A stretch of DNA of 32,253 nucleotides. It comes from a virus. Lineage: Duplodnaviria > Heunggongvirae > Uroviricota > Caudoviricetes. Positions 5,413-32,253 of this stretch are shown here, one piece after another. The stretch covers positions 1-32,253 of IMG/VR virus record IMGVR_UViG_2558860288_000008. One strand, 5' to 3'. Within the stretch, counting starts at the first letter, position 1; every line of letters starts with the position of its first letter. Under the pieces are notes generated by a model. The model was not told the DNA's origin. It made no database searches and saw only the letters and a list, made by a program, of their open reading frames with translations. The position numbers were made by a program, and so were the translations under genes.

Positions 5413-6603
5413 TTAATTGCTGTTAACCGAGGTGACCAGATTTGCCAGGTATTTATCGGTAATACGCTGGCGCAGGGTCAGGTTTTCAAGAGGAGGCACC
5501 GGTGTATAGTCGTAGTCGATATACAGTTTTCCGGCCTTGAGGGTTTCCGCATCGTTGGATTCTTCGCTGAACCAGCAGGTCGCATCCACGATATAGCCGT
5601 TTGTTTTCAGCTCACGGAATTTGGCATTGATACCGTCAACGATGTCGCGAATCAGCGTTGCGGTGATGGGCTTGTCCACCGCCCACATGTGCGCCTCAGC
5701 CATCGTGTCGGCCAGCACCTGCGCGGTGCGGGTGTAGTTTTCAAAGAGGAACAGCGGGTCATCAGAGCAGGTACGGTTACCCCAGAAGCGGAAACCGTCG
5801 CGGCGAATCAGCGTAGTGACGCCTGACTCGTTAAGCAGGTCAGCATCGGTGCCGGACTCCTGCAAATCCCAGAATACAGATGCACTGATGCCGGTAACAC
5901 CGTTCACCCCAACGTTGGACAGCGTTTTATGCCAGCCCTGCTCCTGGTCGATTTTAGCGCGCAGCCCCAGCGCACGGGCAGTGGCATACGCGGTGGCGGT
6001 GGTACTGGTGACCGTATCCCATGCGAGGAAATCCGGCCAGATGACCATCAGCTCACGCTGGCTGAAATTCTGGCGGTAAGCTTTCACCTCGGAAATGGTC
6101 TTACAGCCCCATGCGCTGATATACCCGAAAGCGCGCAGCTTCTGACAGACGGATACCAGTGCAACAGCCACCTCTTTGGTGTCCAGTCCCGGCACACCGA
6201 GAATACGCGGTTTAACACCGGTTACCGACTCCGCCGCCAGCAGGGCTTTCAGTCCGGTGTACTGACCGTTTTCGTCGGTGGTGCCGATGATATTGGAAAC
6301 GGTCTGCGCAAGTTTCGTTTCCTCGTCGTCGCCGGTGCCGTCTTCCACACGCACGACAACGGTGACCGGTTTTGACTGGTCGGCGATGGCCTGCAACGAT
6401 GCCGCCAGCGTGCCTTTTTTACCGGCCTTTGCAATTGCGCTCTGCACATTGGTAATCAGCACTGGTTTATTGAGGGGGAAGATTTCCGCATCCGCATCGC
6501 TGGCCGTGCAGACCATGCCAACAATGGCGGTGGATACGGTGGAAATGACGCGGGTGCCGTCGTTAATCTCCAGCACCTGCACGCCGTGATGATAGTCACT
6601 CAT
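5413..6603 (-). CDS. FI: Contractile tail sheath protein FI, 396 aa
   Basis: Translation MSDYHHGVQVLEINDGTRVISTVSTAIVGMVCTASDADA...; GGAG ribosome-binding site upstream on the minus strand; length matches P2 FI. Confidence 0.9.
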   Translation of the reverse strand: MSDYHHGVQVLEINDGTRVISTVSTAIVGMVCTASDADAEIFPLNKPVLITNVQSAIAKAGKKGTLAASLQAIADQSKPVTVVVRVEDGTGDDEETKLAQTVSNIIGTTDENGQYTGLKALLAAESVTGVKPRILGVPGLDTKEVAVALVSVCQKLRAFGYISAWGCKTISEVKAYRQNFSQRELMVIWPDFLAWDTVTSTTATAYATARALGLRAKIDQEQGWHKTLSNVGVNGVTGISASVFWDLQESGTDADLLNESGVTTLIRRDGFRFWGNRTCSDDPLFLFENYTRTAQVLADTMAEAHMWAVDKPITATLIRDIVDGINAKFRELKTNGYIVDATCWFSEESNDAETLKAGKLYIDYDYTPVPPLENLTLRQRITDKYLANLVTSVNSN

Positions 6604-6989
6604 CCGTTTAACTCCGTGGTTAATGGGTGCAACTATTTTCTGTTGGGCAGTGCATGAGACGCTATTTGACCTGGCTGGTCAGTGGATGAAACAACAGATA
6701 AAGAAAAGGCAGGCAATTCGCCCGCCTGTCCTGATTTGTACTCACTCATTTTCCGACTGACAGTTTACATAGCCCAAAAGCTATCAAATCTGACAGTTTC
6801 CTTTGAGCGAGAAGCGGAAGTTGTTCATTTATACAAGTCTGAAAGATGACTACCGAAGCTACAGCGATTCGGTTCATTCATCCACAAATAGTTCCTTTAC
6901 ATTTCATATGTTGATATCCACAATATGCGACAGAGCAGCGCTATGTTTTTATAACCATATGTTTTTCAATTGCTTTAGTTGAGGTAATA

Positions 6990-8576
6990 ATGATACCAAT
7001 CAAAGATCTAACTCTTGGCTATGCTGATGCTGAAAATTATAAGAGAAGGGAGAATAAAGAATTACTTAACAAAGTGTTCATACGTGATAATCACCTATCT
7101 AGATTATGTGAACCAAATATATCGTTTCTTGTAGGAGAGAAAGGTACTGGTAAAACCGCATACTCTATCTATCTCTCAAATAACAATATTAACAATACGC
7201 TAGCTACAACTAAATATATAAGAGAGACAGAATATCAAAAATTTATCACTCTTAAATCTGAAAAGCATTTAAATTTGTCTGACTTCTCTGGCATATGGAA
7301 AGTTATTCTATATTTATTAATATCAAAACAAGTATTAGATAAAGAAGGGAAAATTTCAAAGTTACTAAATTATTCAAAATTCTCATCACTTAATGATGCA
7401 ATAGATGAGTATTATCTTAAGGCATTTTCACCAGAAATAATTCAAGCCCTCAGTTTTGTTCAAGAGTCAAAAGTTGCAGCCGAACTACTTCATAAGCATG
7501 CAACCTTAAAAGGTGAAGAAAGAGAGTCTTTATCTTTTTCTGAGAGCAGATTTCAGATAAATTTATTTTATATACAAAAAAAATTTGAAGAGGCCTTTAG
7601 CCAAATACGTTTATCTCAAAATCATATTTTATTTATCGATGGTATTGATATCCGCCCTTCCTCAATTCCATACGATGATTATCTAGAATGTATAAAAGGA
7701 TTAGCTCACGCAGTCTGGGAGATTAACAACGATTTCTTCCCAAGTATAAAGGGAGGAAAAGGGAGAATGAAGGCCGTTCTCTTGATCAGGCCAGATATAT
7801 TTGAATCCATAGGATTACAAAATCAAAACGCAAAAATCAGAGATAATTCAGTATTCTTGGACTGGCGGACAGAATATGTTAACCACCGTAGCTCTCAATT
7901 ATTTGAGGTATTAGATCATCTGCTTAGGACTCAGCAAGACATGGCCCTTAAAAAGGGACAGGCATGGGACCATTATTTCCCTTGGGATTCACCCAACGTC
8001 CATGATAATTATAACCACCCCACATCATTTATTAATTTCCTTCGCTGGTCATATTATCGCCCAAGAGATATATTACGGATGCTCGAAATTATCAAATCAC
8101 ACGCCAGCGGTGATGATGGGAAAAATCAATTTAGTCTAGATGACTTTGAAAGTCCTAGCATGCAAAGAGATTACTCTAACTATTTACTTGGAGAAATAAA
8201 AGATCATTTATCATTTTATTATGGAAGTGAACATTATGAGATTTTTTTAAAGTTCTTTGAATTCCTCTCTGGAAAAGATACTTTTGATTACGCTGAATAC
8301 CTCTTAGCATATGAACAACTTGAAACTCATATTAGTTCCATTTCCACAACAAAACCAAAATTCATGACAACTGCAAATGACTTCCTTCAGTTTCTTTTTG
8401 GTCTCAATGTAATATGCTATATAGAAACAACCGAAGATAATAATAGGTTTATACGTTGGTGTTTTAGAGAAAGAAGTTACGCAAATATCTCACCAAAAAT
8501 AAAAACAGGAATGAAATATCAAATATTTTATGGCTTGGAAAAAGCCTTAAACGTCGGAAAGGCTTTAAAAAAATAA
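6990..8576 (+). CDS. AT-rich accessory gene: 528-aa P-loop NTPase of unassigned family (candidate anti-phage/exclusion protein at the Z/fun position)
   Basis: Walker A GEKGTGKT (aa 49-56, nt 7134-7157), Walker B-like hhhhD (HILFIDGID), and a possible sensor-like RPRDILRML motif. GAGG ribosome-binding site before the ATG at 6990. Strand is opposite to the flanking late genes and the base composition is strongly AT-rich compared with them. Confidence 0.8.
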   Translation: MIPIKDLTLGYADAENYKRRENKELLNKVFIRDNHLSRLCEPNISFLVGEKGTGKTAYSIYLSNNNINNTLATTKYIRETEYQKFITLKSEKHLNLSDFSGIWKVILYLLISKQVLDKEGKISKLLNYSKFSSLNDAIDEYYLKAFSPEIIQALSFVQESKVAAELLHKHATLKGEERESLSFSESRFQINLFYIQKKFEEAFSQIRLSQNHILFIDGIDIRPSSIPYDDYLECIKGLAHAVWEINNDFFPSIKGGKGRMKAVLLIRPDIFESIGLQNQNAKIRDNSVFLDWRTEYVNHRSSQLFEVLDHLLRTQQDMALKKGQAWDHYFPWDSPNVHDNYNHPTSFINFLRWSYYRPRDILRMLEIIKSHASGDDGKNQFSLDDFESPSMQRDYSNYLLGEIKDHLSFYYGSEHYEIFLKFFEFLSGKDTFDYAEYLLAYEQLETHISSISTTKPKFMTTANDFLQFLFGLNVICYIETTEDNNRFIRWCFRERSYANISPKIKTGMKYQIFYGLEKALNVGKALKK

Positions 8577-8585
8577 AAAACAAAA

Positions 8586-8610
8586 ATGGCGAGTGGAAAA
8601 CACTTGCCAT
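8586..8610. terminator. Hairpin (10-bp stem ATGGCGAGTG / CACTTGCCAT) flanked by an A/T tract; terminator-like, most convincing for minus-strand transcripts
   Basis: Stem-loop read directly; on the minus-strand RNA it is followed by a long U-tract (UUUUGUUUUUAUUUUU); on the plus strand it follows the NTPase stop but lacks a 3' U-run. Confidence 0.45.
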
Positions 8611-8976
8611 TCACCTCATAGTAATAACTAATAGTAGATAATTTTAACGGGACGCAGACCGAATTGTGTAATCTGAACATTTACCAAATATTTAAAATAT
8701 TATCTGAACTGAGTGATGCCAATCATAGCGCCAATACCTCTTCGCAAGTGACACTTGATGCAGAAAGCTATTTTTAAAACACGCGATAATAATCATCTCC
8801 TATGCCCTATCATCTTATGATTCTGTACAGGAAGACGCACGTTAGCTATGCAATCAAAACACACTGATATGACCATTGTTCTTGTTTATAAGGTCCGCTT
8901 TTGGCACAGAGTGGACTTCAGATTAGGCTTTACTCTGTGCCATAGATATGTAAGTTCACAACAGAGGTCATACAAC

Positions 8977-9504
8977 TTATTGCGGCATTTCCGGCCATTC
9001 AGGATTTGCAGGATCCACACGGCTGACCAGAACGCTGTAACGTTCCCATGACTCCAGTCGTGCACGTTCCTCATCCGTCGCCATATTCAGCCTGACAGCG
9101 CGTTCCAGTGGCTGAATAACGTTTTCCGCTTCGGAAAGTAACGCGGCCTTTTGTGATTCTGCCTGTTGTTGCTGTTCATCTGCCGTATAAATCCGTTTAA
9201 CCACAGCACCATCCTTAAACATCCATTTACCTGAGTCGTCAGCACGTCGGTTGGAGGTAATATCAGGAACCTCAACAACGCTAAAACCTTCAGGATTAAG
9301 CGTTGAAGCATCTCTGGTGATAGCGACAATAATATTATTTTCATCGTAAACAATCTTTATTGTGTCTGGCTGAAAGTTCTTCACTTCCTCATACCAGTTT
9401 TTTCCGTCTTCGGACCATAACCAGATAACATCAAAATTCTTTGTTAGCTGATATTGCTCTTTTGTTTTTGGATTACCTGACTTAATGTTCTTTAAATGCT
9501 GCAT
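8977..9504 (-). CDS. G: Tail fibre assembly chaperone G, 175 aa
   Basis: Translation [41 protein letters not shown]...; immediately downstream of H; length matches P2 gpG. Confidence 0.85.
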
Positions 9505-9507: not shown

Positions 9508-11517
9508 TTACACCTGCGCAACGTTATACCATGTGCCATTGATGTATTTTTGTATCGGCCTGAAGATGGCTTCATCATCGCCATCTACTTCACCAATGAT
9601 TCTTAATCCGGTAATCGTGTGTCCGGCTTTTTCATAACGACCACCTCGCGCCATCAATTGAACAACTCGCGTACCCAGGCGAACATCTTTCACATAGCGG
9701 GAATCAAAATTTCCCCAGTTGCTGGGTTGCATCTGACCGTTAACAGCAAATATTACCGAGTTATCTGTATTTCGCTGGCTATAGAAATGCCATCCGGCCT
9801 CATCGCCTAACTCTGCAACCACTGGACGGGTGGAAGCACCCCATAAATTAAAGGTAATATTCTTCGTGGATGTATTAGAGCTGGATAGCGAGAACTTTTT
9901 ACTATCACCTGCCTGAATATTTTTAAAAGCAATAGCCACTCCATTCTGAAAACGGAATACACGCTGACTGTTAGCATAAACATCAAGAATACCGTCTCCA
10001 TTCTGTTTAAATCCGGTATCATTATCACCAAGAACAATAGAGCTACCACCTAGTGCATTCGTCGTACCAACTCCAAAACAGCCATTAATGACGGCATTAA
10101 CAAGAATATTTAGTGCATCCCATTTCAACGTCATCAGGTCTTTTGTTGTGGTACTCTGGCGGCTTCTCCATTTGAAATATTCATTGCCGTTATCCCCCGT
10201 TTCAAACCACATGTATGAATCAGTGTCACCATCGGCATCATTTTTAAATCCAATCTTCGCCCAGTCAGTATTTCGAATCCAGGCAAGGATTGAGTCGTTT
10301 TCAAAAGTAAGTCCACCGGACAAGGTATCGCCATTTTTTTGCACGGCGTTCCCGGCTCGGTTTACCGTTTCCTGTAAACCGAGATATTCGATAACGGCGG
10401 CAACGGTCGATTTAGCCAGAATATCCCGCCCGACTTTTGTCAGGGTCGCCAGGCTGGCAACATCATTCCCCGTAAAATACGGAAACCTGTCTGCCGCAGT
10501 AGCAAGCCCCGCCAGCGCCGTCAGGGTAGCATCTTTCGGTTGCTTACCCGCAAGCGCATTAGTCATGGTGGTAGCAAAATTCGGGTCATTGCCCAGCGCC
10601 GCCGCCAGCTCGTTCAGCGTATTCAGTGCGTCAGGCGACGAGTCTACAAGGGCGGCAATCGCGGCCATAACGAAAGCCGTGTTTGCGATCTGAGTATTAT
10701 TCGTTCCCTGTCGCGCAGTTGGCGTCGTTGGCGTTCCGGTCAGTGCAGGGCTGTTTAATGGCGCTTTTTTGTTCGTTTCATCCATTACCGTCTTAACGGC
10801 TTTTGGTGTTGCGGCGAGCGTTTCAGACGTGCTGTTGGTGGCGCTACTAAGCTGGACAAGGCCTTTTCGCGCTGTGGTGGCGTCCTGTGCGGTATATTTC
10901 CCGTTAGCCAGGTCATACGCGGCCTTTACCGCTTTCGGCGTTGCGGCCAGTGTTTCAGACGTGCTGTTGGTCGCACTGCTTAACTGAGTAAAACCTTTTG
11001 CGGTCAGCGAGGCGTCAGGGTGACGTCGTGACTGTTCATGTTCTGCAATTTTGTCATCAACGTAATCCTGCGTCGCCATCACCGTTGTGGTGTCGATGGT
11101 CAGATCCACTGAGGCCACACTGCTGACGATAATGACCATGCGGCAGGTCTGCGAACGTCCTGAGCCTTCGGCAAGGGCTGGCTTATAACTTTCGGCCATG
11201 TTCGCCACGGCAATTAACGTTCCCGCATCATCGTACAGGCCAAGCTCACGCATCCAGAAACCGCCCACCTCCGGCGGAATAACCAGCTCTGCGATAATAT
11301 AATTACTGTTTCGTTTGTCCTGGCTGATTTTGTTCAGCGCATGTCGCCAGACTTCGTGGATAAGCCCGGTCTGTCCGGCATCCGGGACAGGCAATTTACC
11401 ACCGCCATCCCCGACGGCCATCGTGGTAATGTTGACCTTCCGCCCTCCCGGCGCGGTTGCCGCTGCCAGCTTTGCTGCACCGGCAGTGGTGATAACGGTT
11501 TTGAATTTTGTGCTCAT
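9508..11517 (-). CDS. H: Tail fibre protein H, 669 aa
   Basis: Translation MSTKFKTVITTAGAAKLAAATAPGGRKVNITTMAVGDGGG... with an internal repeated motif QLSSATNSTSETLAATPKAVK; length and position match P2 gpH. Confidence 0.9.
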   Translation of the reverse strand: MSTKFKTVITTAGAAKLAAATAPGGRKVNITTMAVGDGGGKLPVPDAGQTGLIHEVWRHALNKISQDKRNSNYIIAELVIPPEVGGFWMRELGLYDDAGTLIAVANMAESYKPALAEGSGRSQTCRMVIIVSSVASVDLTIDTTTVMATQDYVDDKIAEHEQSRRHPDASLTAKGFTQLSSATNSTSETLAATPKAVKAAYDLANGKYTAQDATTARKGLVQLSSATNSTSETLAATPKAVKTVMDETNKKAPLNSPALTGTPTTPTARQGTNNTQIANTAFVMAAIAALVDSSPDALNTLNELAAALGNDPNFATTMTNALAGKQPKDATLTALAGLATAADRFPYFTGNDVASLATLTKVGRDILAKSTVAAVIEYLGLQETVNRAGNAVQKNGDTLSGGLTFENDSILAWIRNTDWAKIGFKNDADGDTDSYMWFETGDNGNEYFKWRSRQSTTTKDLMTLKWDALNILVNAVINGCFGVGTTNALGGSSIVLGDNDTGFKQNGDGILDVYANSQRVFRFQNGVAIAFKNIQAGDSKKFSLSSSNTSTKNITFNLWGASTRPVVAELGDEAGWHFYSQRNTDNSVIFAVNGQMQPSNWGNFDSRYVKDVRLGTRVVQLMARGGRYEKAGHTITGLRIIGEVDGDDEAIFRPIQKYINGTWYNVAQV
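10798..11003. repeat. Imperfect ~75-bp direct repeat, two copies 132 bp apart, inside gene H
   Basis: The DNA block ...gttgcggcgagcgtttcagacgtgctgttggtggcgct... recurs as ...gttgcggccagtgtttcagacgtgctgttggtcgcact...; it encodes the duplicated peptide with a 44-residue period. Confidence 0.8.
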
Positions 11518-11527
11518 TATTCCTCAC

Positions 11528-12058
11528 TTATCCGGGGTAAACCGTAATTACATCGCCGTCATAAGCCACACCACCGGCAAACAGGTAGCCGGGAATGTCC
11601 CGGGTAATGTTCAGACCAATAAGGTGGCGGCTTGCAGGTTTGGCATCAGCAATCAGCCGTTCCATTTCCTGATACATTGCCTCTGTGATGCCGCTTTCCA
11701 GTACACCAATATCAAGCCGGAAGGTGCCGGGCGGGTCACTGTTTTCCCACCACTCCGTCACGTTGATGAGATAGCCGAGCGGCTCCACCACACGCCGGAT
11801 TGCACCTATTGTGCCTTTATGACAGTGGATGAAATAGGCATCGCGGATAACGGCGCGTTTTGTCGCTTCCGGCCACTTTTCATCCCACCTGTCGACCGAA
11901 AACGCCCACGCCAGCCACGGCAGCAGATTTGCCGGGCAGGTGTCCGGGTTCCACAGCTCACGAATACTGACCGGCGTTTTTTCAATTTCCGCACAGGCTT
12001 TTGCGGCGGCGACCTCAAGCGGTGATGAGCCGGTCGGCAGCAGTCGCGAATCACTCAT
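11528..12058 (-). CDS. I: Baseplate/tail protein I, 176 aa
   Basis: Translation MSDSRLLPTGSSPLEVAAAKACAEIEKTPVSIRELWNPDTCPANLLPWLAWAFSVDRWDE...; position J-I-H; overlaps the J stop. Confidence 0.9.
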   Translation of the reverse strand: MSDSRLLPTGSSPLEVAAAKACAEIEKTPVSIRELWNPDTCPANLLPWLAWAFSVDRWDEKWPEATKRAVIRDAYFIHCHKGTIGAIRRVVEPLGYLINVTEWWENSDPPGTFRLDIGVLESGITEAMYQEMERLIADAKPASRHLIGLNITRDIPGYLFAGGVAYDGDVITVYPG

Positions 12059-13943: not shown

Positions 13944-14026
13944 GCATGTGAGATTGCACAATATATAAAAGTTATGCTATCTGGATTCATTTGTAGAACT
14001 ACCAGACAACATTCAAGGAGAGCGTA

Positions 14027-14812
14027 ATGGTCAGCTATAATGTGACTAATGTGTGGGGGCTAATCGTTTTTTTCCTTTGTAGCTTTGCAGTATTAGCATT
14101 TTTTAGCTTTGGTAAAAGTAACCTTATGAGGCTTATTGCACATTATTTCAATTTTGGATATTCAGACAAAAAATTAAAAAGACTTGACCGCGAGTGGCGC
14201 GACATTCAACTATTTAAAATAATTAACGGAATCAATGTATCAGGCATTGAAAATGTGAGAATGATACAGCAGGGACTGATTGATGGAAAACTAAAAACAT
14301 CGTATTTTTTCCTTACTCGCATCTGGGGTGACATAACAAAACCACCACACATAATTAAAACAATAATTGTAATTCTGGCCAGTATTTTTTACATTCTCCT
14401 CGCATGTTACATACACAACGAACAATCCGTTATAGTAAGGGATGCCATAGGCATACCATATAAAAACATGATGTACTATGTTTATAGTGACAAAGTTCTT
14501 TTATCCTTCAAAAATAAAGCAGTTGAATTTAATAAAACTTATAGCCTTGCCGATTGCAAGAGACTGCAAAACGTATTTATAAAAGACACACTTCCTGAGA
14601 TCGCCTGCAATAAGCTCTTACAGCTAAACGAGGAGGACTCCGAATGGTTAAGTCAGGAGATTAAAGATAATAACAGTCACAAAAAAGCATTATTAATACT
14701 ATCCCTCGTCTATTTCACTTCAGGTCTGGTTATATTCCTGTCATATACAAAATTCTTTTACGCCAATAAGAAGGTTTTAGAATACAAAGCATCAAATAAA
14801 AATCACTCATAA
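14027..14812 (+). CDS. AT-rich accessory gene: 261-aa predicted membrane protein (three hydrophobic helices), function unknown, at the orf30 position between S and V
   Basis: GGAG ribosome-binding site before the ATG at 14027; hydrophobic segments VWGLIVFFLCSFAVLAFFSF, IIKTIIVILASIFYILLACYI and ALLILSLVYFTSGLVIFLSY; opposite strand to the late genes; AT-rich. Confidence 0.75.
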   Translation: MVSYNVTNVWGLIVFFLCSFAVLAFFSFGKSNLMRLIAHYFNFGYSDKKLKRLDREWRDIQLFKIINGINVSGIENVRMIQQGLIDGKLKTSYFFLTRIWGDITKPPHIIKTIIVILASIFYILLACYIHNEQSVIVRDAIGIPYKNMMYYVYSDKVLLSFKNKAVEFNKTYSLADCKRLQNVFIKDTLPEIACNKLLQLNEEDSEWLSQEIKDNNSHKKALLILSLVYFTSGLVIFLSYTKFFYANKKVLEYKASNKNHS

Positions 14813-14820
14813 ACCTCTAA

Positions 14821-14851
14821 ACATTGAGCGACCAGCATGGCCGCTCAATGT
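14821..14851. terminator. Bidirectional terminator-like hairpin between the convergent membrane-protein gene and S
   Basis: Perfect 10-bp inverted repeat ACATTGAGCG ... CGCTCAATGT with an 11-nt loop, followed by T-rich sequence on both strands. Confidence 0.5.
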
Positions 14852-14883
14852 TTAATTGCGCATCAGCCTCTGCCTGGATAAAA

Positions 14884-15336
14884 CTAACGCTCAAGGTGAA
14901 CCAGGATAATCTCTTCAATCATCTGCACATCCTCACCGGTAAAGCCGAGCAGAGGACGCGCCGGATAATCAATTTTCTTACCGTCTTTCCGGTTTTCTTC
15001 CGACAGACCGAACTGATGCACACTGGCGATTTTCGGCGACTTCCCGCCGTAAAATTCCATTGATGCCTGCTCCGGGCTGGCGCGGATATGCAAAAAACGA
15101 CTGGTAATAAGTTTCGCAAACATTTTTCGCTTAACACGGCCAGTCTTTTTTCTGGCGCTCTGCTGCTGGCGTGGCGCGTAGGGTGTGCCGTCCGGGGCTT
15201 TCTGAGCCATCACCCGACGCTGCTGACTCTGCCGCAGACGTTTCGCCAGTTCGGCACTCAGTCGCCGACGCCCTGACGGTGACAGCGACTCAATCAGTCC
15301 GGTCAGCCGGTCTTCAAAACGCTTAAACTCATTCAT
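14884..15336 (-). CDS. S: Tail completion protein S, 150 aa
   Basis: Translation MNEFKRFEDRLTGLIESLSPSGRRRLSAELAKRLRQSQQRRV...; position after R; length matches P2 gpS. Confidence 0.9.
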   Translation of the reverse strand: MNEFKRFEDRLTGLIESLSPSGRRRLSAELAKRLRQSQQRRVMAQKAPDGTPYAPRQQQSARKKTGRVKRKMFAKLITSRFLHIRASPEQASMEFYGGKSPKIASVHQFGLSEENRKDGKKIDYPARPLLGFTGEDVQMIEEIILVHLER

Positions 15337-24240: not shown

Positions 24241-24662
24241 CGCCCGCTTCATGGGTCGGTTTTAATGCAGGTGCATGACCACCATGGTGTCGCGCCTATT
24301 CTGACGGAGCACGATCTAAACTAGCAGCTCCAACGCATGCAAAACAATGCGCCTAATGCTTGCACATCTGAAAATAAAAATCGTGTAGAAAGATATAGCA
24401 AAGTCTGCATATTAAAGCTGGCTGGCACGCAACTCATATCGCAGTGATTTGCCAATTACATTGCGCAAAATTTACACTAACAACGGTTATCAAGAAGCAG
24501 GCGCAAATTGATTATCAAAAACTCGATCTAATCTATTGATCTAGACACGAATATTTATGCATCCTGATATTGTTTTAAAGGTCTTTGATTGCCTAATCAA
24601 GTCCTGCACTACTTTGGCGTACAACACTTACATAAAGTTGAAAACTACAGAAGGGCACAAGA

Positions 24663-25748
24663 ATGGGTTACGAAGTTGATTTCTTAGCAGTTGGAGAAAA
24701 AAAAAGTGGAGATGCTATCTGCATAAGATGGGGCAACCTCCACGGAACAAGAGCAGAGCAAAAAGTTGTCGTAATTGATGCGGGGTACGCAAGCACTGGT
24801 CCACAAATAATTGAACATTTACAGAAATACTATCATACAAATACTATTGACTTACTCATATCCACGCATCCAGATAGCGACCATGCTGGCGGCCTTGAGC
24901 ATGTGATTGAGAATGCGGAAGTCAAAGAGTTCTGGATTCACCAGCCTTGGGAGCATAATGAAAATCTCGCGCAGGAATTTGCTGATGGAAGGATAACAGA
25001 TGCAAGTATTGCCAGACGTATACAAGATAATCTACAAAAAGCCTATGATGCCGTCAAATCAGCGAAAAAAAAAGGAATAGAAATTAAGGAGCCTTTTCAA
25101 GGCAGGACTTGGGACAATTCTAAACTGGTTGTTATTGGACCAACACAAGCATACTATGAAACATTAATCCCCGATTTTGCAAGAATGCCTGAAAAAGCAG
25201 AAACAACTGCAACCAGTGGTACAGATGCATATAACTACTTTTTTGAGAAAGCCAAAGAACAAGTCGAGTATATTGCTGATTGGTTCTCTGATGAGGGAAT
25301 TGATGACAAGGACACAACTACTGCACAAAACAATTCAAGCGTTATATTAAAAATTGAAATTGACAATAAAACACTAGTATTTACAGGTGATGCAGGAATA
25401 ACTGCATTAGATATGGCTGCTGATCATATAAATAATAACTCATTATCATTTATTCAAGTGCCCCACCATGGAAGCAGGAGAAACATCGGTCCAGCGGTGC
25501 TAAATAAGCTCGTTGGAAATATTGTAAGCGAAGGAGGAAGAAGTGGTGTTTGTGCATTTATATCATGCGCACCGGATTCCGATAAACACCCTCATCAAGC
25601 GGTCATTAATGCTTTTACAAGGCGTGGAGCCAAAGTAGTCGCCACAGAAGGCACCAATAAACGCCATTCTAGTAATGCCCCCGCCAGAGATGGCTGGACT
25701 GCAGTCACCCCACGCTCATACGCAAGGAGTTATAAGACTGAAGAATAA
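24663..25748 (+). CDS. AT-rich accessory gene: 361-aa metallo-beta-lactamase-fold hydrolase, ComEC/Rec2-C-terminal-like (candidate nuclease; candidate anti-phage effector)
   Basis: MBL motifs read in order: VVVIDAG (Asp motif), THPDSDHAGG (variant of HxHxDH), VPHHGS, and a C-terminal ...SCAPDSDKHPHQAVINAFTRRGAKVVATEG resembling the ComEC MBL domain tail. GAAGGG ribosome-binding site before the ATG at 24663. Sits in the cos-to-A interval where P2 carries tin/old. Confidence 0.75.
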   Translation: MGYEVDFLAVGEKKSGDAICIRWGNLHGTRAEQKVVVIDAGYASTGPQIIEHLQKYYHTNTIDLLISTHPDSDHAGGLEHVIENAEVKEFWIHQPWEHNENLAQEFADGRITDASIARRIQDNLQKAYDAVKSAKKKGIEIKEPFQGRTWDNSKLVVIGPTQAYYETLIPDFARMPEKAETTATSGTDAYNYFFEKAKEQVEYIADWFSDEGIDDKDTTTAQNNSSVILKIEIDNKTLVFTGDAGITALDMAADHINNNSLSFIQVPHHGSRRNIGPAVLNKLVGNIVSEGGRSGVCAFISCAPDSDKHPHQAVINAFTRRGAKVVATEGTNKRHSSNAPARDGWTAVTPRSYARSYKTEE

Positions 25749-25753
25749 TTCGT

Positions 25754-25775
25754 TAAGCTGCCTTAGGGCAGCTTA
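25754..25775. terminator. Bidirectional terminator-like hairpin between the convergent MBL and membrane-protein genes
   Basis: Perfect 9-bp inverted repeat TAAGCTGCC-ttag-GGCAGCTTA followed by TTATT; it overlaps the stop codon of the minus-strand gene. Confidence 0.55.
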
Positions 25776-26251
25776 TTATTAGCCTTACTCACTCTTAATG
25801 TAATAAACTTAATTTGCTTAACGTACGACACAATAAAAACAAAAATCAAAAACAATGAAATCCATTTCGACGCCATGTAATCACCACCAACTACAAACGA
25901 AACAAAAAACAAAGAAAACAAAAAAACCAAGGACATAGAGAATAACGTCCTATACATATTTGCAGTTTCTTGAAGAAGCTCTATTTTATTATCCTTTCTA
26001 CATGCTGAGATATATTCCTCATATGGAACAAATTTTACCAGCCCCAAAAATTTCAACACAGGCTCAAAAACAATAGACCCAATCCTTCCGATAATTATCC
26101 CCGTAAAATAGTAAAGTACCACATTCTTAACAACATCATCTGTGGATAATATCACATTGGTTGCCCGCTCAAACAAATAAATAAACAAAGCACCGGGAAA
26201 GAGATTGTTAAATATATTATAAGACGATATTTTTTCCCATAAACCATCCAT
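25763..26251 (-). CDS. AT-rich accessory gene: ~162-aa polytopic membrane protein (about four hydrophobic helices), function unknown
   Basis: Translation ...GALFIYLF..., ...YYFTGIIIGRIGSIVF..., ...LFSMSLVFLFSLFFVSFVVGG..., ...WISLFLIFVFIVSYV...; ATG at 26249-26251 (minus) with an AAAGGTG ribosome-binding site; the track ORF begins at an upstream GTG. Confidence 0.65.
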   Translation of the reverse strand: MDGLWEKISSYNIFNNLFPGALFIYLFERATNVILSTDDVVKNVVLYYFTGIIIGRIGSIVFEPVLKFLGLVKFVPYEEYISACRKDNKIELLQETANMYRTLFSMSLVFLFSLFFVSFVVGGDYMASKWISLFLIFVFIVSYVKQIKFITLRVSKANNKLP

Positions 26252-26366
26252 ACAACACACCTTTTAACCAATTTTAAAGACGCCATTTTCATCAAAAGAA
26301 ACAAAAATAGCAAGAACATCAGAACAAACTCTTTGAACACCTGAAAATATTATGTTCCGACACCAT

Positions 26367-28646
26367 TCATTTTGTAAAAGCAGAATATCCCAAACACACA
26401 TCGATTGTAGGATATATAAACGTCTTCCTGCCATATGTTATGGTAGCCCCTCGCGCCAGCGCCTCAAGCTCCCATCGCTGCGGCCTGATACCGTTCTGAG
26501 CAAGGTCAACGCGGATACGGGTAATTTGCATTCGTTCCGACCGGGTCAGTCTGGCCGATGGCGCTATTTCATGCGGTTTTAACGGGCTTCCGTTTCTTTG
26601 CTGACGGTTTGGTCTTCTCAGGCCGTGTTTTAATGCGCTTCTGAGCGCCCTCACGACCTCCGGGTCATTCCATTCGATAACACCGTCATCTACCAGATTA
26701 AGCACTGCTGCGGCGTGCTCAGAAGGCGTGGGAGCCGGTAACGAAGTATCACCACCGGTGAGCTTTCCACAGTTATTGACAGGACTCCGAGGCGCGGCGA
26801 TGCCGCTTTTTAAAGTCAAAGGCTCAACGACCGGAACTTTCGGCACAATGCGCCAGTCCGTCGTTCTGGTGATATGAATATGACGCGCGCCGAGATGCGG
26901 CGCGTAAATGCCGACCACTCTCTCGACTTCTTCCTCGTACTCGTTAACGTCATCCGACGGGCTACGGGCGACTCTGACAGTCTGGCAATCACGCGGAACA
27001 TTTGCCCCACCCTGCGCGCTGATATACAACGCAAAATCACCACTGTCTGCGGCGGCACGTGCAGCCTCAACGCGTTCGTCAAACTCATCAGCAATGCTGA
27101 CGCCGCGAGGCAATTTGCGTAGTTCACGGTAAGCCCCCATTGTCGGCAGGCCAACCGTTTTAAATTGCGGGATGCGCCACGTTGACGCCCATGCGGTAAC
27201 AGCCGCAGCAGTATCTTTCAGCGGCCTGCCGGTATCGTTATCGAGCTGACCATCCAGTGCATAGCCGTCGATGTTTTTTGAAATGTATTTCGCGATATAT
27301 CCCGCAGCACCGCCCCGGTTAAGGTGTTTTGCCTGAAAACGGTTTCGCGCGGCTCCTCTTTCGTCGCCATCCTCTTTGAGCGCATAGCGACGCATGATTT
27401 CGATAATCTGGTTACGCTGGCGTGGATTACAAAAAAGCATCATATGCCAGTGCGGCGTTCCGTCGTGGTGTGGCTCGACGACTCGCAAACCGTAGACCTG
27501 TAAATCATTATCCTTGAATGCCGTGCGCATCAGGCTCCAGATACGGCAGAGATAACGCTGCGCATCCTTTGGATTAAATGCCTCATCGTTCCAGCCGTGA
27601 TTAAGCTGGACGGTTTTACTTTCGCCTTTTCCGACCTGACGTGTCGGGTGATACTTTGACGGCGCGGTCAGCGTGATAAACATCCCCACATCACCCTCTG
27701 CGGCGGCGTAACGCTCAATACCGGCAATGGTGTTCATCAGCTCCATCCGGCGAATTTCAGGATTAGAAATACTGCCCATCACCTTACTGATAAGGTCGAT
27801 GCGCTCGCCGGTTTCCCTGTTTTCAAGGTCACACGATTTAAGAAATTCCAGATTTGCCTGGCGGCGCGCACGCACATCACGAATGGCATGTTTACTGGCA
27901 TAAGGAGAACGGTCTTTATTGACCTCCCCGACAGCAATCAGTAACGCCTCATGCCAGCGCATACGCTGGCCTTTAAGCTGATGAGTCCACCACTCATCGT
28001 TAAACAGACGGGCAATGGCAGAATATGCCTGCCTCGTGGTCATCTGTCCTTTACGGTATTTTTTCCAGTAGAGAGGGGAAATATTGAAAGCACGTGCAGC
28101 GCCAGCAACATGACCATACAGATGCGCCTGCGCCTCATCTGTAAACAGCGATTCTTTCTCGCCATGTGCATCAACCCATGCATCGCAGAGTTCCTCATAC
28201 ATCATGAAAAGCTGCGATGAGATACGGGCGGCAAACTTTTTCAGCTCCTTGTCATTCATCCCCGGCAGACGCGCATAATGGTCACGCTCTGCCAGAAACA
28301 GCAACGACGCGTCGGTATTCATTTCATGGCGCTGATTCACGCGCTCAATACGCGGCCATAAACGGCGCTGAAAAGTGGATGTGAGGAAATAAAACCCGTG
28401 CACCGGGCTTTTATTGCGCCGGATGTAGTCATAGCGTGAAGTAAACAGCGAGCGCAAAAAGTAAGGCAGGCGATTAATCGTGGATAAAACACCTTGCACC
28501 TGACGCATCTCGTCACGTGTAAGGGGTCTTTCGCGCCCGACGGCCTCGCGTGGCGCGTTCCATGCATAAGCACCGGTAAACGTCTCACCGGTGCCTGCGG
28601 CAAATACTGACGGAGGGACAAAACGCCCGGAGGCTTTAACGGCCAT
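26367..28646 (-). CDS. A: Replication initiation protein A (rolling-circle nickase), ~759 aa
   Basis: Translation from the ATG at 28644-28646 (minus): MAVKASGRFVPPSVFAAGTGETFTGAYAWNAPREAVGRERPLTRDEMRQ...; contains a paired-histidine motif (HHDGTPHWHMM) and YxxK-type motifs (GYIAKYISKN) of rolling-circle initiators. Confidence 0.9.
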   Translation of the reverse strand: MAVKASGRFVPPSVFAAGTGETFTGAYAWNAPREAVGRERPLTRDEMRQVQGVLSTINRLPYFLRSLFTSRYDYIRRNKSPVHGFYFLTSTFQRRLWPRIERVNQRHEMNTDASLLFLAERDHYARLPGMNDKELKKFAARISSQLFMMYEELCDAWVDAHGEKESLFTDEAQAHLYGHVAGAARAFNISPLYWKKYRKGQMTTRQAYSAIARLFNDEWWTHQLKGQRMRWHEALLIAVGEVNKDRSPYASKHAIRDVRARRQANLEFLKSCDLENRETGERIDLISKVMGSISNPEIRRMELMNTIAGIERYAAAEGDVGMFITLTAPSKYHPTRQVGKGESKTVQLNHGWNDEAFNPKDAQRYLCRIWSLMRTAFKDNDLQVYGLRVVEPHHDGTPHWHMMLFCNPRQRNQIIEIMRRYALKEDGDERGAARNRFQAKHLNRGGAAGYIAKYISKNIDGYALDGQLDNDTGRPLKDTAAAVTAWASTWRIPQFKTVGLPTMGAYRELRKLPRGVSIADEFDERVEAARAAADSGDFALYISAQGGANVPRDCQTVRVARSPSDDVNEYEEEVERVVGIYAPHLGARHIHITRTTDWRIVPKVPVVEPLTLKSGIAAPRSPVNNCGKLTGGDTSLPAPTPSEHAAAVLNLVDDGVIEWNDPEVVRALRSALKHGLRRPNRQQRNGSPLKPHEIAPSARLTRSERMQITRIRVDLAQNGIRPQRWELEALARGATITYGRKTFIYPTIDVCLGYSAFTK
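26776..26795. other. Candidate origin of replication / A-protein nick region inside the 3' part of gene A
   Basis: The reverse complement of plus 26776-26795 is GCGCCTCGGAGTCCTGTCAA, which matches my recollection of the P2 ori nick-site region inside A (memory only). Confidence 0.4.
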
Positions 28647-28911
28647 ATGAGCCAAAAGCCTCTGAACAACGCTTGCTGAGTTGCTCAACCTGCGCGTTTA
28701 AATCAGCAAAAGACTTTGCGCTTCCGGTCAGAATATCGTGATGCATCAGGCCGGAAACGAGCTGGCTTAATTTCGGGTAATAACCAACCACCGCCAGCCA
28801 TTCCTGACCGGCGTTTTTACCGCTTTCCGCTCTCTTTTTCTCGTGGAGAATAAACTGAAAGCTGTCACTGGTAACGACATAACGTTCGCCAATTTCAATA
28901 CGAATACTCAT
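28636..28911 (-). CDS. Small early-region protein (P2 orf83 position), 91 aa
   Basis: Translation MSIRIEIGERYVVTSDSFQFILHEKKRAESGKNAGQEWLAVVGYYPK...; ATG at 28909-28911 overlaps the stop of the upstream gene. Confidence 0.7.
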   Translation of the reverse strand: MSIRIEIGERYVVTSDSFQFILHEKKRAESGKNAGQEWLAVVGYYPKLSQLVSGLMHHDILTGSAKSFADLNAQVEQLSKRCSEAFGSYGR

Positions 28912-29132
28912 GCCGTTCTCCGGTAATGTTTGTTTTTTGCTTCAAAGACTGACTGACAGGAAACACAACGCGTGGCTGACGGATAAGCCGCACGACGGGC
29001 AGCAGGTATTGGCGCGTCACACTCTTCGCAAACCAGCGCAGAAACACCGCAATGCTTTACCCTTGCCGCGTTAATCTGGCGCTCCAGTAATTCAGCCTGT
29101 TGTTCCTGAATAAAATCTACGTTGTCCGGCAT
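28908..29132 (-). CDS. TraR/DksA-type C4 zinc-finger protein (P2 orf82 position), 74 aa
   Basis: Translation ...CEECDAPIPAARRAAYPSATRCVSCQ... with the Cys-x2-Cys ... Cys-x2-Cys pattern. Confidence 0.75.
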   Translation of the reverse strand: MPDNVDFIQEQQAELLERQINAARVKHCGVSALVCEECDAPIPAARRAAYPSATRCVSCQSVFEAKNKHYRRTA

Positions 29133-29134
29133 TA

Positions 29135-29658: not shown

Positions 29659-29721
29659 GACTTTCTCCAGGCAAAAAGAAGCCCCGCACAATTAAGTGCG
29701 TTAAAAACTCTGGTTAATTAC

Positions 29722-30389: not shown

Positions 30390-30399
30390 CCTTTCCACC

Positions 30400-30771
30400 T
30401 TAAGCCGCACGGCCATGTCTTGATTTGCTGTAACCAATGCGATTTTTCCAGTCATGCCATTCTGTCGGAGCTTCATCAACTAGCTGGGCTGCGTACTTGT
30501 CCCACTCACGGCGATTAATCCATAATTCAGCTTTCCCTCTTGGTTTTAATGGGTCTGTCATGTAGAAGGCTGGCAGCTTTCCTGCTTTAGCCATTTCAGC
30601 CACCGCGCGTGGTGTCTTACCGATGTAAAGAGCAAAACCTTCTTTCGACAGCAAATCAGATGGGCGCTCTGAAATCTGAATGCTTTTACGTTTGGCTTCA
30701 TTTTCGAAACTTGCCTCATCGCTGGTTGGACAAGAAATTTCTACATTTGTCGTCACTTTGCTATCCTCCAT
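30400..30771 (-). CDS. cox: Cox-like excisionase / early-promoter repressor (helix-turn-helix); start uncertain (up to 123 aa)
   Basis: The segment FALYIGKTPRAVAEMAKAGKLPAFYMTDPLKPRGKAELWI resembles the Cox DNA-binding region; first gene of the early operon, divergent from C. Confidence 0.7.
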   Translation of the reverse strand: MEDSKVTTNVEISCPTSDEASFENEAKRKSIQISERPSDLLSKEGFALYIGKTPRAVAEMAKAGKLPAFYMTDPLKPRGKAELWINRREWDKYAAQLVDEAPTEWHDWKNRIGYSKSRHGRAA

Positions 30772-30824: not shown

Positions 30825-30864
30825 AAATTGCCAAGTAACAATATAATTGGAGATTAGCAAAATT

Positions 30865-31164
30865 ATGTCAAGTGAACAAAGTGAGAAACTAAAGCTCATC
30901 CGTGAATCCGAACGCCTTAAAACTAAGGAACTTGCTGAATTAATTGGAATTAATTACTACACATATCATGGATATGAATCAGGAAAATCAAAAATGCCTA
31001 TGGAAGCAGGTATGAAGCTGTTTAAGCATCCACGCTTTCGCAAGTATCGTGACTGGTTCATGTTTGATGAAACAGATCCAGCAGCTGGACAAATAGCCCC
31101 GGCTCTCGCACACATTGGGCAAGACTCAACAACCTTGCACCACTCAGACCAGAAGACTGGCTGA
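30865..31164 (+). CDS. C: Immunity repressor C, 99 aa
   Basis: Translation from the ATG at 30865: MSSEQSEKLKLIRESERLKTKELAELIGINYYTYHGYESGKS... (helix-turn-helix); GGAG upstream; directly followed by int on the same strand. Confidence 0.85.
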   Translation: MSSEQSEKLKLIRESERLKTKELAELIGINYYTYHGYESGKSKMPMEAGMKLFKHPRFRKYRDWFMFDETDPAAGQIAPALAHIGQDSTTLHHSDQKTG

Positions 31165-31257: not shown

Positions 31258-32253
31258 ATGTCTATTAAAAAGCTCGATGATGGTCGTTATGAAGTGGACG
31301 TCAGACCGCAGGGTGCAGATGGAAAACGTATCAGGCGGAAATTTAAAACTAAAGGTGAAGCTCAAGCATTCGAACGTCATGTACTGGTTAACTACCACAA
31401 CAAAGAGTGGTTGGAGAAACCAGCCGACCGCCGAACTCTTACAGAGTTGTTAGGCAGATGGTGGATATATCACGGAAAATCACATGAGCGTGGAGATATT
31501 GAACGGGGGCGTTTAACGACAATAATCGCCAAATTTGCAGAAATGGGAGTGTCCAGAGCTGACCAGCTAACAAAGAAAACGATAACTGATTATCGCGTTG
31601 TAATGATGAACGATGGTCTGAAACCAGCCAGCGTAAATCGACATCTGGCAATAATGAGCGGGATGTTCACCAAGTTAATTGACGCCGGTGAATACCACTC
31701 TCACAACCCGTTCCGTGAGATTAAACGGTTACGTGAAGCTGTTACGGAAATGGCTTTTTTGTCCAGTGAAGAGATTACGCGGCTGTTATCCATGCTTGAT
31801 GGTGATGAATTAAATGCAACTCTGGTCTGCCTTTCTACTGGTGGACGCTGGAGTGAAGTATCTAATTTAAAAGCTGAACACATCATTAACCAGATGGTTA
31901 CGTTTATGAAAACTAAAAACGGAAAACGCAGGACAATTCCCGTTTCGCAGGACCTGATTAAACGGATCAAGACCAAAAATTCAGGCAGGCTTTTTAATGC
32001 CAGTTACTACAAAGTGCGTAACGCTCTCAGGGAAGTAAAACCCGATTTACCTGACGGACAAGCAGTACATGTTTTGAGGCATACATTTGCCACACATTTT
32101 ATAATGAATGGAGGTAACATAATCACATTGCAGCGCATCCTGGGTCATTCTAACATTCAGCAAACTATGACCTACGCACACTTTGCACCGGATTTCTTAC
32201 AAGATGCTGTGACTCTTAACCCGGTGTCAGGAATGTCCATAATGCGTCCATAA
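31258..32253 (+). CDS. int: Tyrosine integrase, 331 aa
   Basis: Translation MSIKKLDDGRYEVDVRPQGADGKRIRRKFKTKGEAQAFERHV... with catalytic-region motifs (...HVLRHTFATHF..., ...MTYAHF...); GGAGGG ribosome-binding site; stop TAA at 32251-32253 is the window end. Confidence 0.9.
   Translation: MSIKKLDDGRYEVDVRPQGADGKRIRRKFKTKGEAQAFERHVLVNYHNKEWLEKPADRRTLTELLGRWWIYHGKSHERGDIERGRLTTIIAKFAEMGVSRADQLTKKTITDYRVVMMNDGLKPASVNRHLAIMSGMFTKLIDAGEYHSHNPFREIKRLREAVTEMAFLSSEEITRLLSMLDGDELNATLVCLSTGGRWSEVSNLKAEHIINQMVTFMKTKNGKRRTIPVSQDLIKRIKTKNSGRLFNASYYKVRNALREVKPDLPDGQAVHVLRHTFATHFIMNGGNIITLQRILGHSNIQQTMTYAHFAPDFLQDAVTLNPVSGMSIMRP

Follow-up and report, generated by a model that had tools for sequence, protein, structure and literature searches.

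fun(Z) in a P2-like prophage: an allele of a known phage-exclusion gene and the AAA+ ATPase it is predicted to encode

What occupies the interval between the tail genes FI and G of the prophage studied here, and how might its product exclude other phages? The stretch of DNA analysed, hereafter the window, is an IMG/VR virus record of 32,253 nt (IMGVR_UViG_2558860288_000008). A preliminary description of it had placed a single AT-rich gene of 528 codons at the position of P2 Z/fun, opposite in strand to the tail genes, and had wondered whether this gene encodes the classical Fun protein or has replaced it. The account of the locus was accurate. The interval contains only one long open reading frame (ORF; Table 1), which begins with ATG and shares locus and strand with P2 fun(Z); the other ORFs of the interval are 50-67 aa long and are unannotated in P2. 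The GC content of the gene is 0.328 and that of its surrounding cassette 0.334, against 0.564 for FI and 0.509 for the window. A chance ORF can be dismissed, since the gene has 1805 homologues (E<=1e-3 in a 90%-clustered database) and its family forms 690 clusters at 50% identity.

The alternative posed by the preliminary description is settled in favour of the classical protein. In a tblastn comparison the encoded protein is 99.4% identical to P2 Fun(Z) (NP_046777), with three substitutions (E442K, E517A and A519S) that all lie outside the invariant positions described below. By its sequence, then, the window carries one allele of fun(Z), the classical gene of P2 for lysogenic conversion and phage exclusion, and replacement cargo at the Z hotspot is ruled out. 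The gene is already known, and the window adds no new biology in this respect because it simply holds another copy. What the present analysis contributes is a predicted fold, a set of invariant residues, a variable insert, a winged helix and evidence of partner independence; new here are the fold, the invariant residues, which fall into four catalytic or sensor classes, the consistently solitary occurrence of the gene in its varied carriers, and its AT-richness relative to its flanks.

Table 1. Features of the FI-G interval and of the fun(Z) product in window coordinates; domain and motif assignments drawn from the structure model are predictions.
Feature	Position	Strand	Basis or remark
FI	5413..6603	-	flanking gene of the interval
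Junction inverted repeat, left arm (imperfect, 18 nt)	6801..6818	.	pairs with 8894-8911 at the cassette junction
Variable Z-region cassette, ~2.07 kb, GC 0.334	6823..8892	.	homology breaks and composition; lies between conserved P2-type backbone flanks
Shine-Dalgarno GAGG	6981..6984	+	direct sequence reading; 5 nt before ATG
funZ (fun(Z)) CDS, 528 aa + stop	6990..8576	+	ORF list; identity to P2 Fun(Z) NP_046777; NF047389; phrog_13260
Walker A / P-loop GEKGTGKT, residues 49-56	7134..7157	+	follows strand 46-49 in model; K55 is the Walker A lysine
All-helical insert, 126 aa, residues 79-204	7224..7601	+	model secondary structure and pLDDT; between core strands beta2 and beta3
Walker B ILFIDGID, residues 213-220	7626..7649	+	strand 211-217 in model; D217 and D220 invariant
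R267 (LLIRPD)	7788..7790	+	invariant; end of core strand beta4 (strand 260-266)
RPRDILRML, residues 357-365	8058..8084	+	start of lid helix (358-372); R359 invariant, P358 and D360 nearly invariant
Winged-helix domain, ~residues 413-528	8226..8573	+	model; C-terminal, topology H-S-H-H-S-S
Hairpin, 9 nt past the funZ stop codon	8585..8611	-	T-run follows on the - strand; P2 V-operon (H, G) terminator
Junction inverted repeat, right arm	8894..8911	.	pairs with 6801..6818; same basis as left arm
G	8977..9504	-	flanking gene of the interval

By its nucleotide similarity the window is a P2-like prophage (97.9% identity to P2 over positions 1-24240), and funZ sits in a sharply bounded cassette within the P2-type backbone. 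The homology of Wphi and P2-EC58 to the window ends at 6813-6822 and restarts at 8893-8902; the Z-region is known as a variable locus (PMC3091744). The two arms of the junction repeat are 78% complementary, which taken alone is weak, and coincide both with the homology junctions and with the 'right/left inverted repeat' annotations of AJ512683. In E. coli APEC O1, funZ lies at the same Z-region locus, between G and FI and on the opposite strand. Other defence cargo is found at the Z hotspot of sister phages. The hairpin downstream of funZ folds with -18 kcal/mol (z=-5.7) and matches in sequence a terminator annotated in P2, and the V-operon (H, G) terminator at this position comes from the cassette. 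A second gene or sRNA hidden in the 400-nt stretch 3' of funZ was also considered; the terminator hairpin was all that was found there, and an Rfam scan of 6500-9100 gave no match.

The phenotype of the gene is documented for the P2 allele, which also makes lysogens hypersensitive to FUdR. According to the P2 GenBank annotation, the 'cloned gene blocks growth of T5 ... confers sensitivity to FUdR'. The preliminary description had likewise named T5 as the target, correctly as far as it went, and had understated the range: in the BASEL papers (PMC8594841, PMC11990801) the cloned gene protects E. coli from most of the tested phages larger than ~60 kb, among them T5-like, T-even, rV5-like, Felix O1-like and Kuravirus phages and some that are N4-like. 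Its proposal of a single-gene candidate for phage exclusion was well founded, the gene being that of P2 Fun(Z), which protects when expressed alone. Rousset et al. 2022 cover the old/tin hotspot and do not mention fun. Our literature search returned no mention of Sll1717, the family name introduced below, and no mechanistic paper for funZ and phage; the 'funZ' of Glaesserella is unrelated and stands for 'function unknown gene Z'.

To which family does the protein belong? The label 'unassigned' in the preliminary description is out of date. The NCBIfam profile NF047389, 'P-loop ATPase, Sll1717 family', scores 210.8 bits, far beyond its curated threshold of 75 (E=4e-62), and matches at full length (residues 9-520 to profile positions 1-454 of 454), and the E. 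coli copies bear the same name in RefSeq. PHROG 13260 also matches over the full length (E=4e-212). The claim of a P-loop NTPase is upheld; neither the NF047389 name nor PHROG 13260 gives a function. Pfam returned nothing past threshold for FunZ, the best matches being Sigma54_activ_2 and AAA at E~0.06, and profile searches of the PDB with narrow and broad family alignments gave no significant match. The defence-HMM scan that the preliminary description had proposed was equally unproductive. PADLOC v2.0.0 gave no significant defence family; its best match, PDC-M28C, covers only residues 17-74 (E=0.0033) and was found in at most six of 55 FunZ family members (best E 5e-6). We regard this as noise at the level of the P-loop and reject membership of a named PADLOC system.

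In the structure model the core is an alpha-beta-alpha fold with strand order 5-1-4-3-2, Walker A and Walker B motifs and a C-terminal helical lid, as expected of the AAA+ superfamily. The core carries a 126-aa helical insert and is followed by the lid and by a winged helix with which the protein ends at residue 528. With good support from this prediction, FunZ would be a stand-alone AAA+ ATPase in the neighbourhood of Cdc6/Orc1, archaeal ATPases, TnsC/MuB, BrxC and the STAND proteins. The nearest structural neighbours of the model are DNA-binding AAA+ switches. Of the traits looked for in ORC/Cdc6 proteins, the model has an insert after beta2 and a C-terminal winged helix that may bind DNA, whereas the Pfam ORC-CDC6-like profile stays at 16-24 bits, below its threshold of 27, and does so in relatives only. 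From topology, the insert may lie where AAA+ proteins of the ORC/DnaA type have their initiator-specific, DNA-contacting motif. No other segment is so poorly conserved: identity to the window protein is 0.25-0.31 as against 0.47-0.48 in the core, and residues 141-183 of the insert are modelled at low confidence. Of the fold options raised in the preliminary description, the AAA+/STAND-like one is favoured by prediction and the other two are rejected: FunZ is assigned neither to the KAP NTPases, with their transmembrane helices inserted in the P-loop domain, nor to the ABC-type ATPases of defence systems (Old, PARIS AriA, Gabija GajA), with their signature motif, Q-loop and, usually, a TOPRIM partner or domain.

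In the family alignment, which spans 25-62% identity, the invariant residues are K51, G52, G54, K55 and T56, D217 and D220, R267, and R359. These residues suggest that an ATPase may be needed. The Walker A, Walker B and RPRDILRML motifs are where the preliminary description had them, K55 included, and its guess of a sensor motif at RPRDILRML is plausible because R359 is invariant across the family; from its place in the modelled lid, this motif is a candidate sensor 2 or GxP-like motif. Walker B is non-canonical, with DGxD instead of DE. R267 appears, from its location in the model, to lie at the sensor-1 position. An arginine at sensor 1 is typical of STAND proteins. No invariant arginine was found between beta4 and beta5 that could serve as an arginine finger, as judged from the family alignment and a model that holds no bound nucleotide.

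The STAND-like traits of FunZ, namely a layout resembling NBD-HD1-WHD and the arginine at sensor 1, raise the question of whether it senses a phage protein. On this view a NOD module reduced to NBD, helical lid and WHD would make up FunZ, and its variable insert or winged helix would recognise a protein conserved among large phages; the ligand would free it from autoinhibition and lead to exchange of ADP for ATP and to oligomerisation, and the oligomer would be toxic or recruit a host factor. We consider this unlikely, for several reasons. Firstly, neither Pfam nor the model reveals a sensor built of repeats (TPR, LRR or WD40) or an effector domain at the N terminus, and all STAND matches in Pfam, among them nSTAND3, AAA_16 and NPHP3_N, fall below their cut-offs. 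Secondly, the lid bears R359, a sensor-2 trait of AAA+ proteins that is usually missing from STAND proteins. Thirdly, the targets span unrelated phage families, which is difficult to reconcile with a single-protein trigger. Finally, whole-protein identity across distant phyla is 63-79%, whereas defence NLRs usually diverge fast in the surfaces with which they sense ligands.

The distribution of the family bears on two further explanations. From Proteobacteria to Methanosarcina, FunZ is encoded by phages, ICEs and plasmids and within operons for type I R-M, and homologues from Methanosarcina and bacterial phyla reach 57% identity. A conserved partner gene was sought in 80 funZ loci and none was found; the sole recurrent neighbours were type I R-M genes, present in five loci, in orders such as hsdM-hsdS-funZ-hsdR and hsdM-hsdS-RhuM/Fic-Abi_2-hsdR-funZ. 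It stands alone in a Proteus prophage, in islands of Pseudomonas, in an ICE of Salmonella, on the Shewanella chromosome and on a plasmid of Lactococcus, and homologues lack a partner in hosts as distant as Clostridia and Methanosarcina. On p3107B it adjoins ToxN/AbiQ and an FRG protein, and in Neisseria island 31 a WYL protein or else a helicase can stand in its place; these settings and the R-M operons point to a defence context. In nearly every host it is AT-richer than its flanks. Copies also lie within operons that mobile elements use for transfer or tails, and two relatives have C-terminal fusions to cold-shock domains. Thymidylate synthase and DHFR genes lie ~7 kb from a Chromohalobacter homologue, which we take as coincidence because the arrangement does not recur among the 80 loci.

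Could FunZ act upon a partner that its neighbourhood does not reveal? As a remodeller or matchmaker, after the manner of Cdc6, TnsC or clamp loaders, it would spend ATP on loading, sequestering or taking apart another protein complex on which large phages depend or which they carry in, for example a replisome or recombination component or a host nuclease that it unleashes, and the block would not come from the binding of FunZ itself. The closest neighbours of its fold (Cdc6/ORC, TnsC, MuB, RFC and BrxC) all recruit or load partner proteins, and FUdR sensitivity fits a disturbance of host replication or repair proteins. Against this stand the missing partner gene, the occurrence of the same protein in bacteria and archaea despite their differing replication proteins, and its ability to function after transfer among widely different mobile elements; we hold the explanation to be improbable. 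Still less credence, to the point of regarding it as highly improbable, is given to exclusion being a side effect of a role in element maintenance or addiction, or in the control of host nucleotide metabolism. The FUdR sensitivity paid by lysogens, the rarity of funZ in E. coli (13 of 5426 complete genomes) and its seat in transfer or tail operons would suit such a role. However, the P2 record lists fun(Z) as non-essential, protection is broad and strong, unrelated taxa have the gene within operons for type I R-M and adjoining Abi and toxin genes, and the same hotspot holds other defence cargo in sister phages.

On balance, we lean towards the explanation that this fun(Z) allele encodes an ATP switch which needs no partner, has nucleic acid as its target and so gives phage exclusion. 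FunZ would be a switch governed by its nucleotide state and not a motor. In its ATP form it may assemble, via the insert and the winged helix, on nucleic acid such as replicating or damaged DNA or intermediates, and this assembly would itself block the replication or expression of phage DNA and, under thymineless stress, those of the host; abortive or arrested infection would follow. The link to nucleic acid is drawn because of the DNA-binding AAA+ neighbours, the winged helix and the cold-shock-domain fusions. For the specific step, the blocking of infection by a switch assembled on nucleic acid, our confidence is lower and falls somewhat short of even. The trigger may be a universal effect of infection by large virulent phages in place of any one phage protein; massive phage DNA replication, breakdown of host DNA and disturbance of the dNTP pool are candidates. 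A trigger of this kind would explain the breadth of targets together with the FUdR phenotype, and also why the same partnerless protein is kept from E. coli to Methanosarcina.

A bolder extension of this switch explanation, about which we are rather doubtful, is that FunZ/Sll1717 forms a new mechanistic class of immunity by one protein: an effector-less AAA+/winged-helix switch, kept from P2 to Methanosarcina, that reads a universal signature of large-phage replication in nucleic acids or nucleotide pools and arrests infection by ATP-dependent assembly on DNA. The signal would be the same as that arising from FUdR-induced thymineless stress, and no nuclease, NADase, pore or partner would be involved. 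If a protein free of effector domains alone gives broad immunity, its mode of defence is unlike the nuclease, NADase and pore paradigms.

How, then, does the window gene compare with known systems? Its closest counterpart is P2 Fun(Z), with which it shares gene, locus, strand, length, flanking tail genes and terminator. The prophages themselves differ: the window has a Wphi-type allele of the pF promoter/activator-site region adjoining funZ in place of that of P2, lacks old and tin and holds other cargo at the old/tin hotspot, and has a different immunity/integrase module. Among proteins of related predicted fold, the archaeal AAA+ proteins SSO1545 (2fna), PAB2304 (2qen) and the C-domain of MJECL15 (3h92) are 12-15% identical without a sequence-profile match, lack the 126-aa insert and have PDB titles that state no function. 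Cdc6/Orc1, TnsC and MuB have a DE Walker B, whereas FunZ has DGxD, an arginine at sensor 1 and no invariant arginine finger; its insert is much larger than theirs, and no replication or transposition role is known for FunZ. The defence systems BREX (BrxC), RADAR (RdrA) and the Avs/NLR-like STANDs rely on partner genes or on effector and sensor domains, whereas FunZ is solitary and effector-less. The other lysogenic-conversion genes of P2, old and tin, are like funZ AT-rich, anti-phage morons in variable cassettes; Old, however, is a nuclease of the ABC-ATPase/TOPRIM kind and Tin is aimed at the T-even phages' ssDNA-binding protein, and the predicted fold of FunZ differs from both.

The preliminary description, which placed a single-gene NTPase and candidate for phage exclusion at the Z/fun position, was essentially right, and the gene is the P2 fun(Z) that has already been tested. 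The 528-aa product (FunZ) shares 99.4% amino-acid identity with P2 Fun(Z), from which it differs by three substitutions (E442K, E517A, A519S). This alignment settles whether the locus carries the classical Fun protein or a replacement: judged by sequence, it is the classical protein, and replacement cargo at the Z position is ruled out. As a discovery the gene is thus not new, being both known and tested. The interval between the tail genes FI and G is 98.5% identical at the nucleotide level to P2 15275-17651, and among 50,697 phage records searched, P2 alone encodes the FunZ protein. Both the ORF list and base composition bear out a lone long, AT-rich ORF on the strand opposite to the tail genes (GC 0.30-0.37 at 7001-9000 vs ~0.57 in flanking tail genes; 0.328 for funZ vs 0.509 for the window). 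The three motifs first proposed lie where they had been placed, and since GEKGTGKT spans residues 49-56, K55 is the Walker A lysine. Other ORFs in the interval encode 50-67 aa and lack annotation in P2, and an Rfam search of the interval returned no match.

Coordinates of features in the window, the FunZ protein and two homologue loci
Feature	Position	Strand	Remarks
FI	5413..6603	-	Flank of funZ interval
Imperfect 18-nt inverted repeat	6801-6818 / 8894-8911		Exactly at both cassette junctions
GAGG	5 nt 5' of funZ ATG
funZ	6990..8576	+	ATG start, 528 aa; sole long ORF between FI and G
Strong hairpin	8585-8611	-	-18 kcal/mol, z=-5.7; annotated V-operon terminator
G	8977..9504	-	Other flank of funZ interval
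361-aa metallo-beta-lactamase-fold protein	24663..25748	+	HPDSDH motif; PADLOC PDC-M48B E=6e-99, LmuA-like 6e-28
165-aa ORF	25763..26260	-	Several long hydrophobic stretches; PADLOC PDC-M48A E=7e-49
123-aa ORF	30400..30771	-	cox position
105-aa ORF	30847..31164	+	Position of P2 C repressor (assigned by position alone)
Integrase	31258..32253		Reaches window end
FunZ beta1	residues 46-49		Walker A strand
FunZ GEKGTGKT	residues 49-56		Walker A
FunZ beta2	residues 70-76
FunZ helical insert	residues 79-204		126 aa, between beta2 and beta3
FunZ beta3	residues 211-217		Walker B strand
FunZ ILFIDGID	residues 213-220		Walker B
FunZ beta4	residues 260-266
FunZ beta5	residues 287-290
FunZ lid	residues ~296-375
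FunZ RPRDILRML	residues 357-365
FunZ linker helices and winged helix	C-terminal part, past lid
Salmonella enterica ICE homologue	L013 (of L013-L015) 10001-11587		91% identical
Lactococcus cremoris 3107 plasmid p3107B homologue	L016 7001-8578		39% identity; annotated 'hypothetical protein'

The window is a P2-like prophage in reversed orientation, with positions 1-24240 corresponding to P2 24254..1 (97.9% identity) and 26425-30389 to P2 30255..26291 (96.7%). Of the ~40 nucleotides that differ from P2 between FI and G, some 35 fall within ~75 nt at 6630-6705, the pF promoter and Ogr-activator-binding region, where the window is identical to Wphi and not to P2; as a Wphi-type pF region adjoins a P2-type funZ, the backbone is mosaic right up to the cassette. 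Cassette edges were mapped against Wphi and P2-EC58, which bear different cargo at the Z position. Homology to these backbones stops at 6813-6822 and starts again at 8893-8902, delimiting a variable cassette of ~2.07 kb (~6823-8892, 33% GC). In the Z-region record AJ512683, a left and a right inverted repeat are annotated at the same places as the repeat at these junctions. Since the hairpin downstream of funZ is the annotated V-operon terminator, the H-G tail-fibre operon takes its terminator from the cassette.

Three variable loci are known in P2-like phages, namely the Z-region, the old/tin ('TO') region and orf30 (PMC3091744). In the window, the cos-proximal old/tin hotspot (24241-26424) holds two genes in place of P2 old and tin, of which the 165-aa ORF, by inspection, likely encodes a membrane protein. 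Peduovirus P24E6b and phages D8, 11W and 12W carry this cassette at 100% identity and all lack funZ, so that the Z and old/tin hotspots assort independently. A third AT-rich island (14001-15000, GC 0.35-0.39) lies near the position of P2 orf30 (P2 9439-10224) and, falling within the stretch 97.9% identical to P2, is presumably the P2 allele. The immunity/integration module (30390-32253) differs from that of P2, to which it gave no megablast match.

Homologues of FunZ are widespread, with 1805 matches in a 90%-clustered database and 690 clusters in a 50%-clustered library (E<=1e-3), nearly all of 510-570 aa. Those 63-91% identical occur in Salmonella, Proteus, Pseudomonas, Shewanella, Methylobacter and Thermodesulfobacteriota. 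When one genome per species was scanned, the gene turned up in Alpha-, Beta- and Gammaproteobacteria, Thermodesulfobacteriota, Myxococcales, Bacteroidota, Chloroflexota, Cyanobacteriota, Clostridia and Lentisphaerae, as well as in Methanosarcina at up to 57% identity. It is rare in E. coli (13 of 5426 complete genomes, all at >=99.8% nucleotide identity), where strain APEC O1 carries it at the same Z locus. The GC content of the homologues lay below that of their flanks in 54 of 55 loci, by a mean of 18 points (0.38 vs 0.62 in Pseudomonas; 0.34 vs 0.62 in Methanosarcinales), and this AT-richness holds family-wide though the proteins share only 32-79% identity with the copy in the window. The cause may be constant mobility, amino-acid composition or selection such as xenogeneic silencing.

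Outside P2-type loci funZ is always solitary and mostly found on mobile elements: at the integrase end of a lambdoid prophage in Proteus, and between two integrases, beside R-M genes, in Pseudomonas. In the Salmonella ICE it stands alone and reversed within a conjugative-transfer block (TraC/TraG/TraU-type), a placement which mirrors that within P2 tail operons. On the dairy plasmid p3107B the homologue is adjoined by a FRG-domain protein, with a ToxN/AbiQ toxin a few kb away, and could represent a lactococcal Abi gene that has escaped recognition. FunZ is one of three alternative occupants of a variable island in Neisseria meningitidis, the others being a WYL protein and a helicase (PMC8627216). 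When all flanking ORFs of 80 funZ loci were clustered, no recurrent partner gene emerged; the sole recurring neighbours were type I R-M subunits. Homologues lie inside such operons or at their end: four Clostridia MAGs have the order hsdM-hsdS-funZ-hsdR, and Nitrincola tapanii has hsdM-hsdS-RhuM/Fic-Abi_2-hsdR-funZ. Rare domain fusions comprise a C-terminal cold-shock domain in two proteins (23-25 bits, slightly under the Pfam cut-off of 27) and, in one, an N-terminal Ser/Thr protein kinase (E=3e-35) ahead of a FunZ-like NTPase without the winged helix.

The family had at first appeared unassigned, which fails as regards its label and stands as regards its function. FunZ matches NCBIfam NF047389 'P-loop ATPase, Sll1717 family' over its full length (210.8 bits, cut-off 75), the name RefSeq gives to the E. 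coli copies, and phrog_13260 in PHROGs, to which no function is attached. Pfam holds no model for it, a sequence-profile search detected no solved structure as a relative, and PADLOC v2.0.0 has no model for FunZ or for 55 relatives, placing the candidate outside the systems named there. Across 55 full-length representatives (25-62% identical), K51, G52, G54, K55, T56, D217, D220, N246, R267, N278, Y329, F347 and R359 are invariant, and D269, N286, W292, P358 and D360, among others, nearly so. As these include Walker A and B residues, the strongest constraint falls on nucleotide binding and hydrolysis. Walker B reads DGxD, not DE. The suspected sensor motif, RPRDILRML, holds up as plausible: invariant R359 begins a modelled lid helix and could plausibly serve as sensor 2. 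Between beta4 and beta5 the alignment shows no invariant Arg, hence no clear Arg finger. Taken with the putative sensor-1 Arg, these features would suit a slow switch ATPase better than a processive motor.

An AlphaFold2 model (52 homologues as input; pLDDT 76, pTM 0.78) has residues 141-183 as its sole long low-confidence stretch, with 495-501 and the last three residues also below 50. The model and its structural matches yield an architecture of N-terminal helices, AAA+ base, insert, lid and winged helix. Initiator-type AAA+ proteins bear extra DNA-contacting helices at the beta2-beta3 position, and by topology the insert of FunZ may correspond to these. Its second half is the least conserved segment (0.25 identity to the window protein vs 0.47-0.48 for the core).

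In the P2 record, fun(Z) carries the note 'cloned gene blocks growth of T5; nonessential; lysogenic conversion; confers sensitivity to FUdR'. FUdR disturbs DNA synthesis. Protection by the cloned P2 gene, a broad target range and the FUdR phenotype are published. P2 Fun/Z was expressed in E. coli K-12 in the BASEL studies (PMC8594841, PMC11990801), and later work widened the range to Kuravirus and one Gamaleyavirus. The literature's label, 'Abi', would by itself imply death of infected cells; our literature search turned up no mechanistic paper. Prediction supports well an AAA+/winged-helix fold, a reliance on the nucleotide site, and the lack of an effector domain or partner gene. We tentatively propose that FunZ would be an ATP-state switch acting on nucleic acid, because DNA-binding switches are closest to it in structure, a winged helix is present, some relatives bear cold-shock fusions, FUdR perturbs DNA synthesis, and its targets share genome size and lifestyle, not one protein. 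Moreover, since the protein has been retained without a partner in settings as different as phage P2 and Methanosarcina, its target must be universal. An Arg at the sensor-1 position is a feature of STAND proteins, and in FunZ R267 would occupy that position; this, the WHD, the variability of the insert and the fusion to a kinase in one relative support the main rival reading, in which FunZ would be a STAND-like protein sensor that acts as effector through its own oligomer. However, FunZ lacks sensor repeats, and its target breadth and unusually high conservation also make such a sensor unlikely. That FunZ is a matchmaker or remodeller we consider distinctly improbable, and a primary role outside defence would be very surprising.

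What remains of interest is how this single-gene defence protein, broad in range, devoid of an effector and without a PADLOC v2.0.0 model, works; the predicted fold, invariant residues and context data render its mechanism directly testable. A Foldseek search placed the model, as an AAA+-type NTPase, closest to archaeal Cdc6/Orc1 (2qby_A, E=9e-5, whole-length alignment), and none of the matches listed was described as an ABC-type ATPase. Values in the structural-neighbour table were 10.5 for both TnsC (7mbw) and the N-terminal BrxC of BREX, 10.3 for Cdc6, 10.2 for the archaeal ATPase SSO1545, 10.0 for P. aerophilum Cdc6, 9.4 for PAB2304, 9.3 for MuB, 8.3 for MalT, 7.9 for RdrA of RADAR and 7-8 for NLRs/Apaf-1. 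Within this company, SSO1545 (2fna) is the sole entry matched well by both halves of FunZ.
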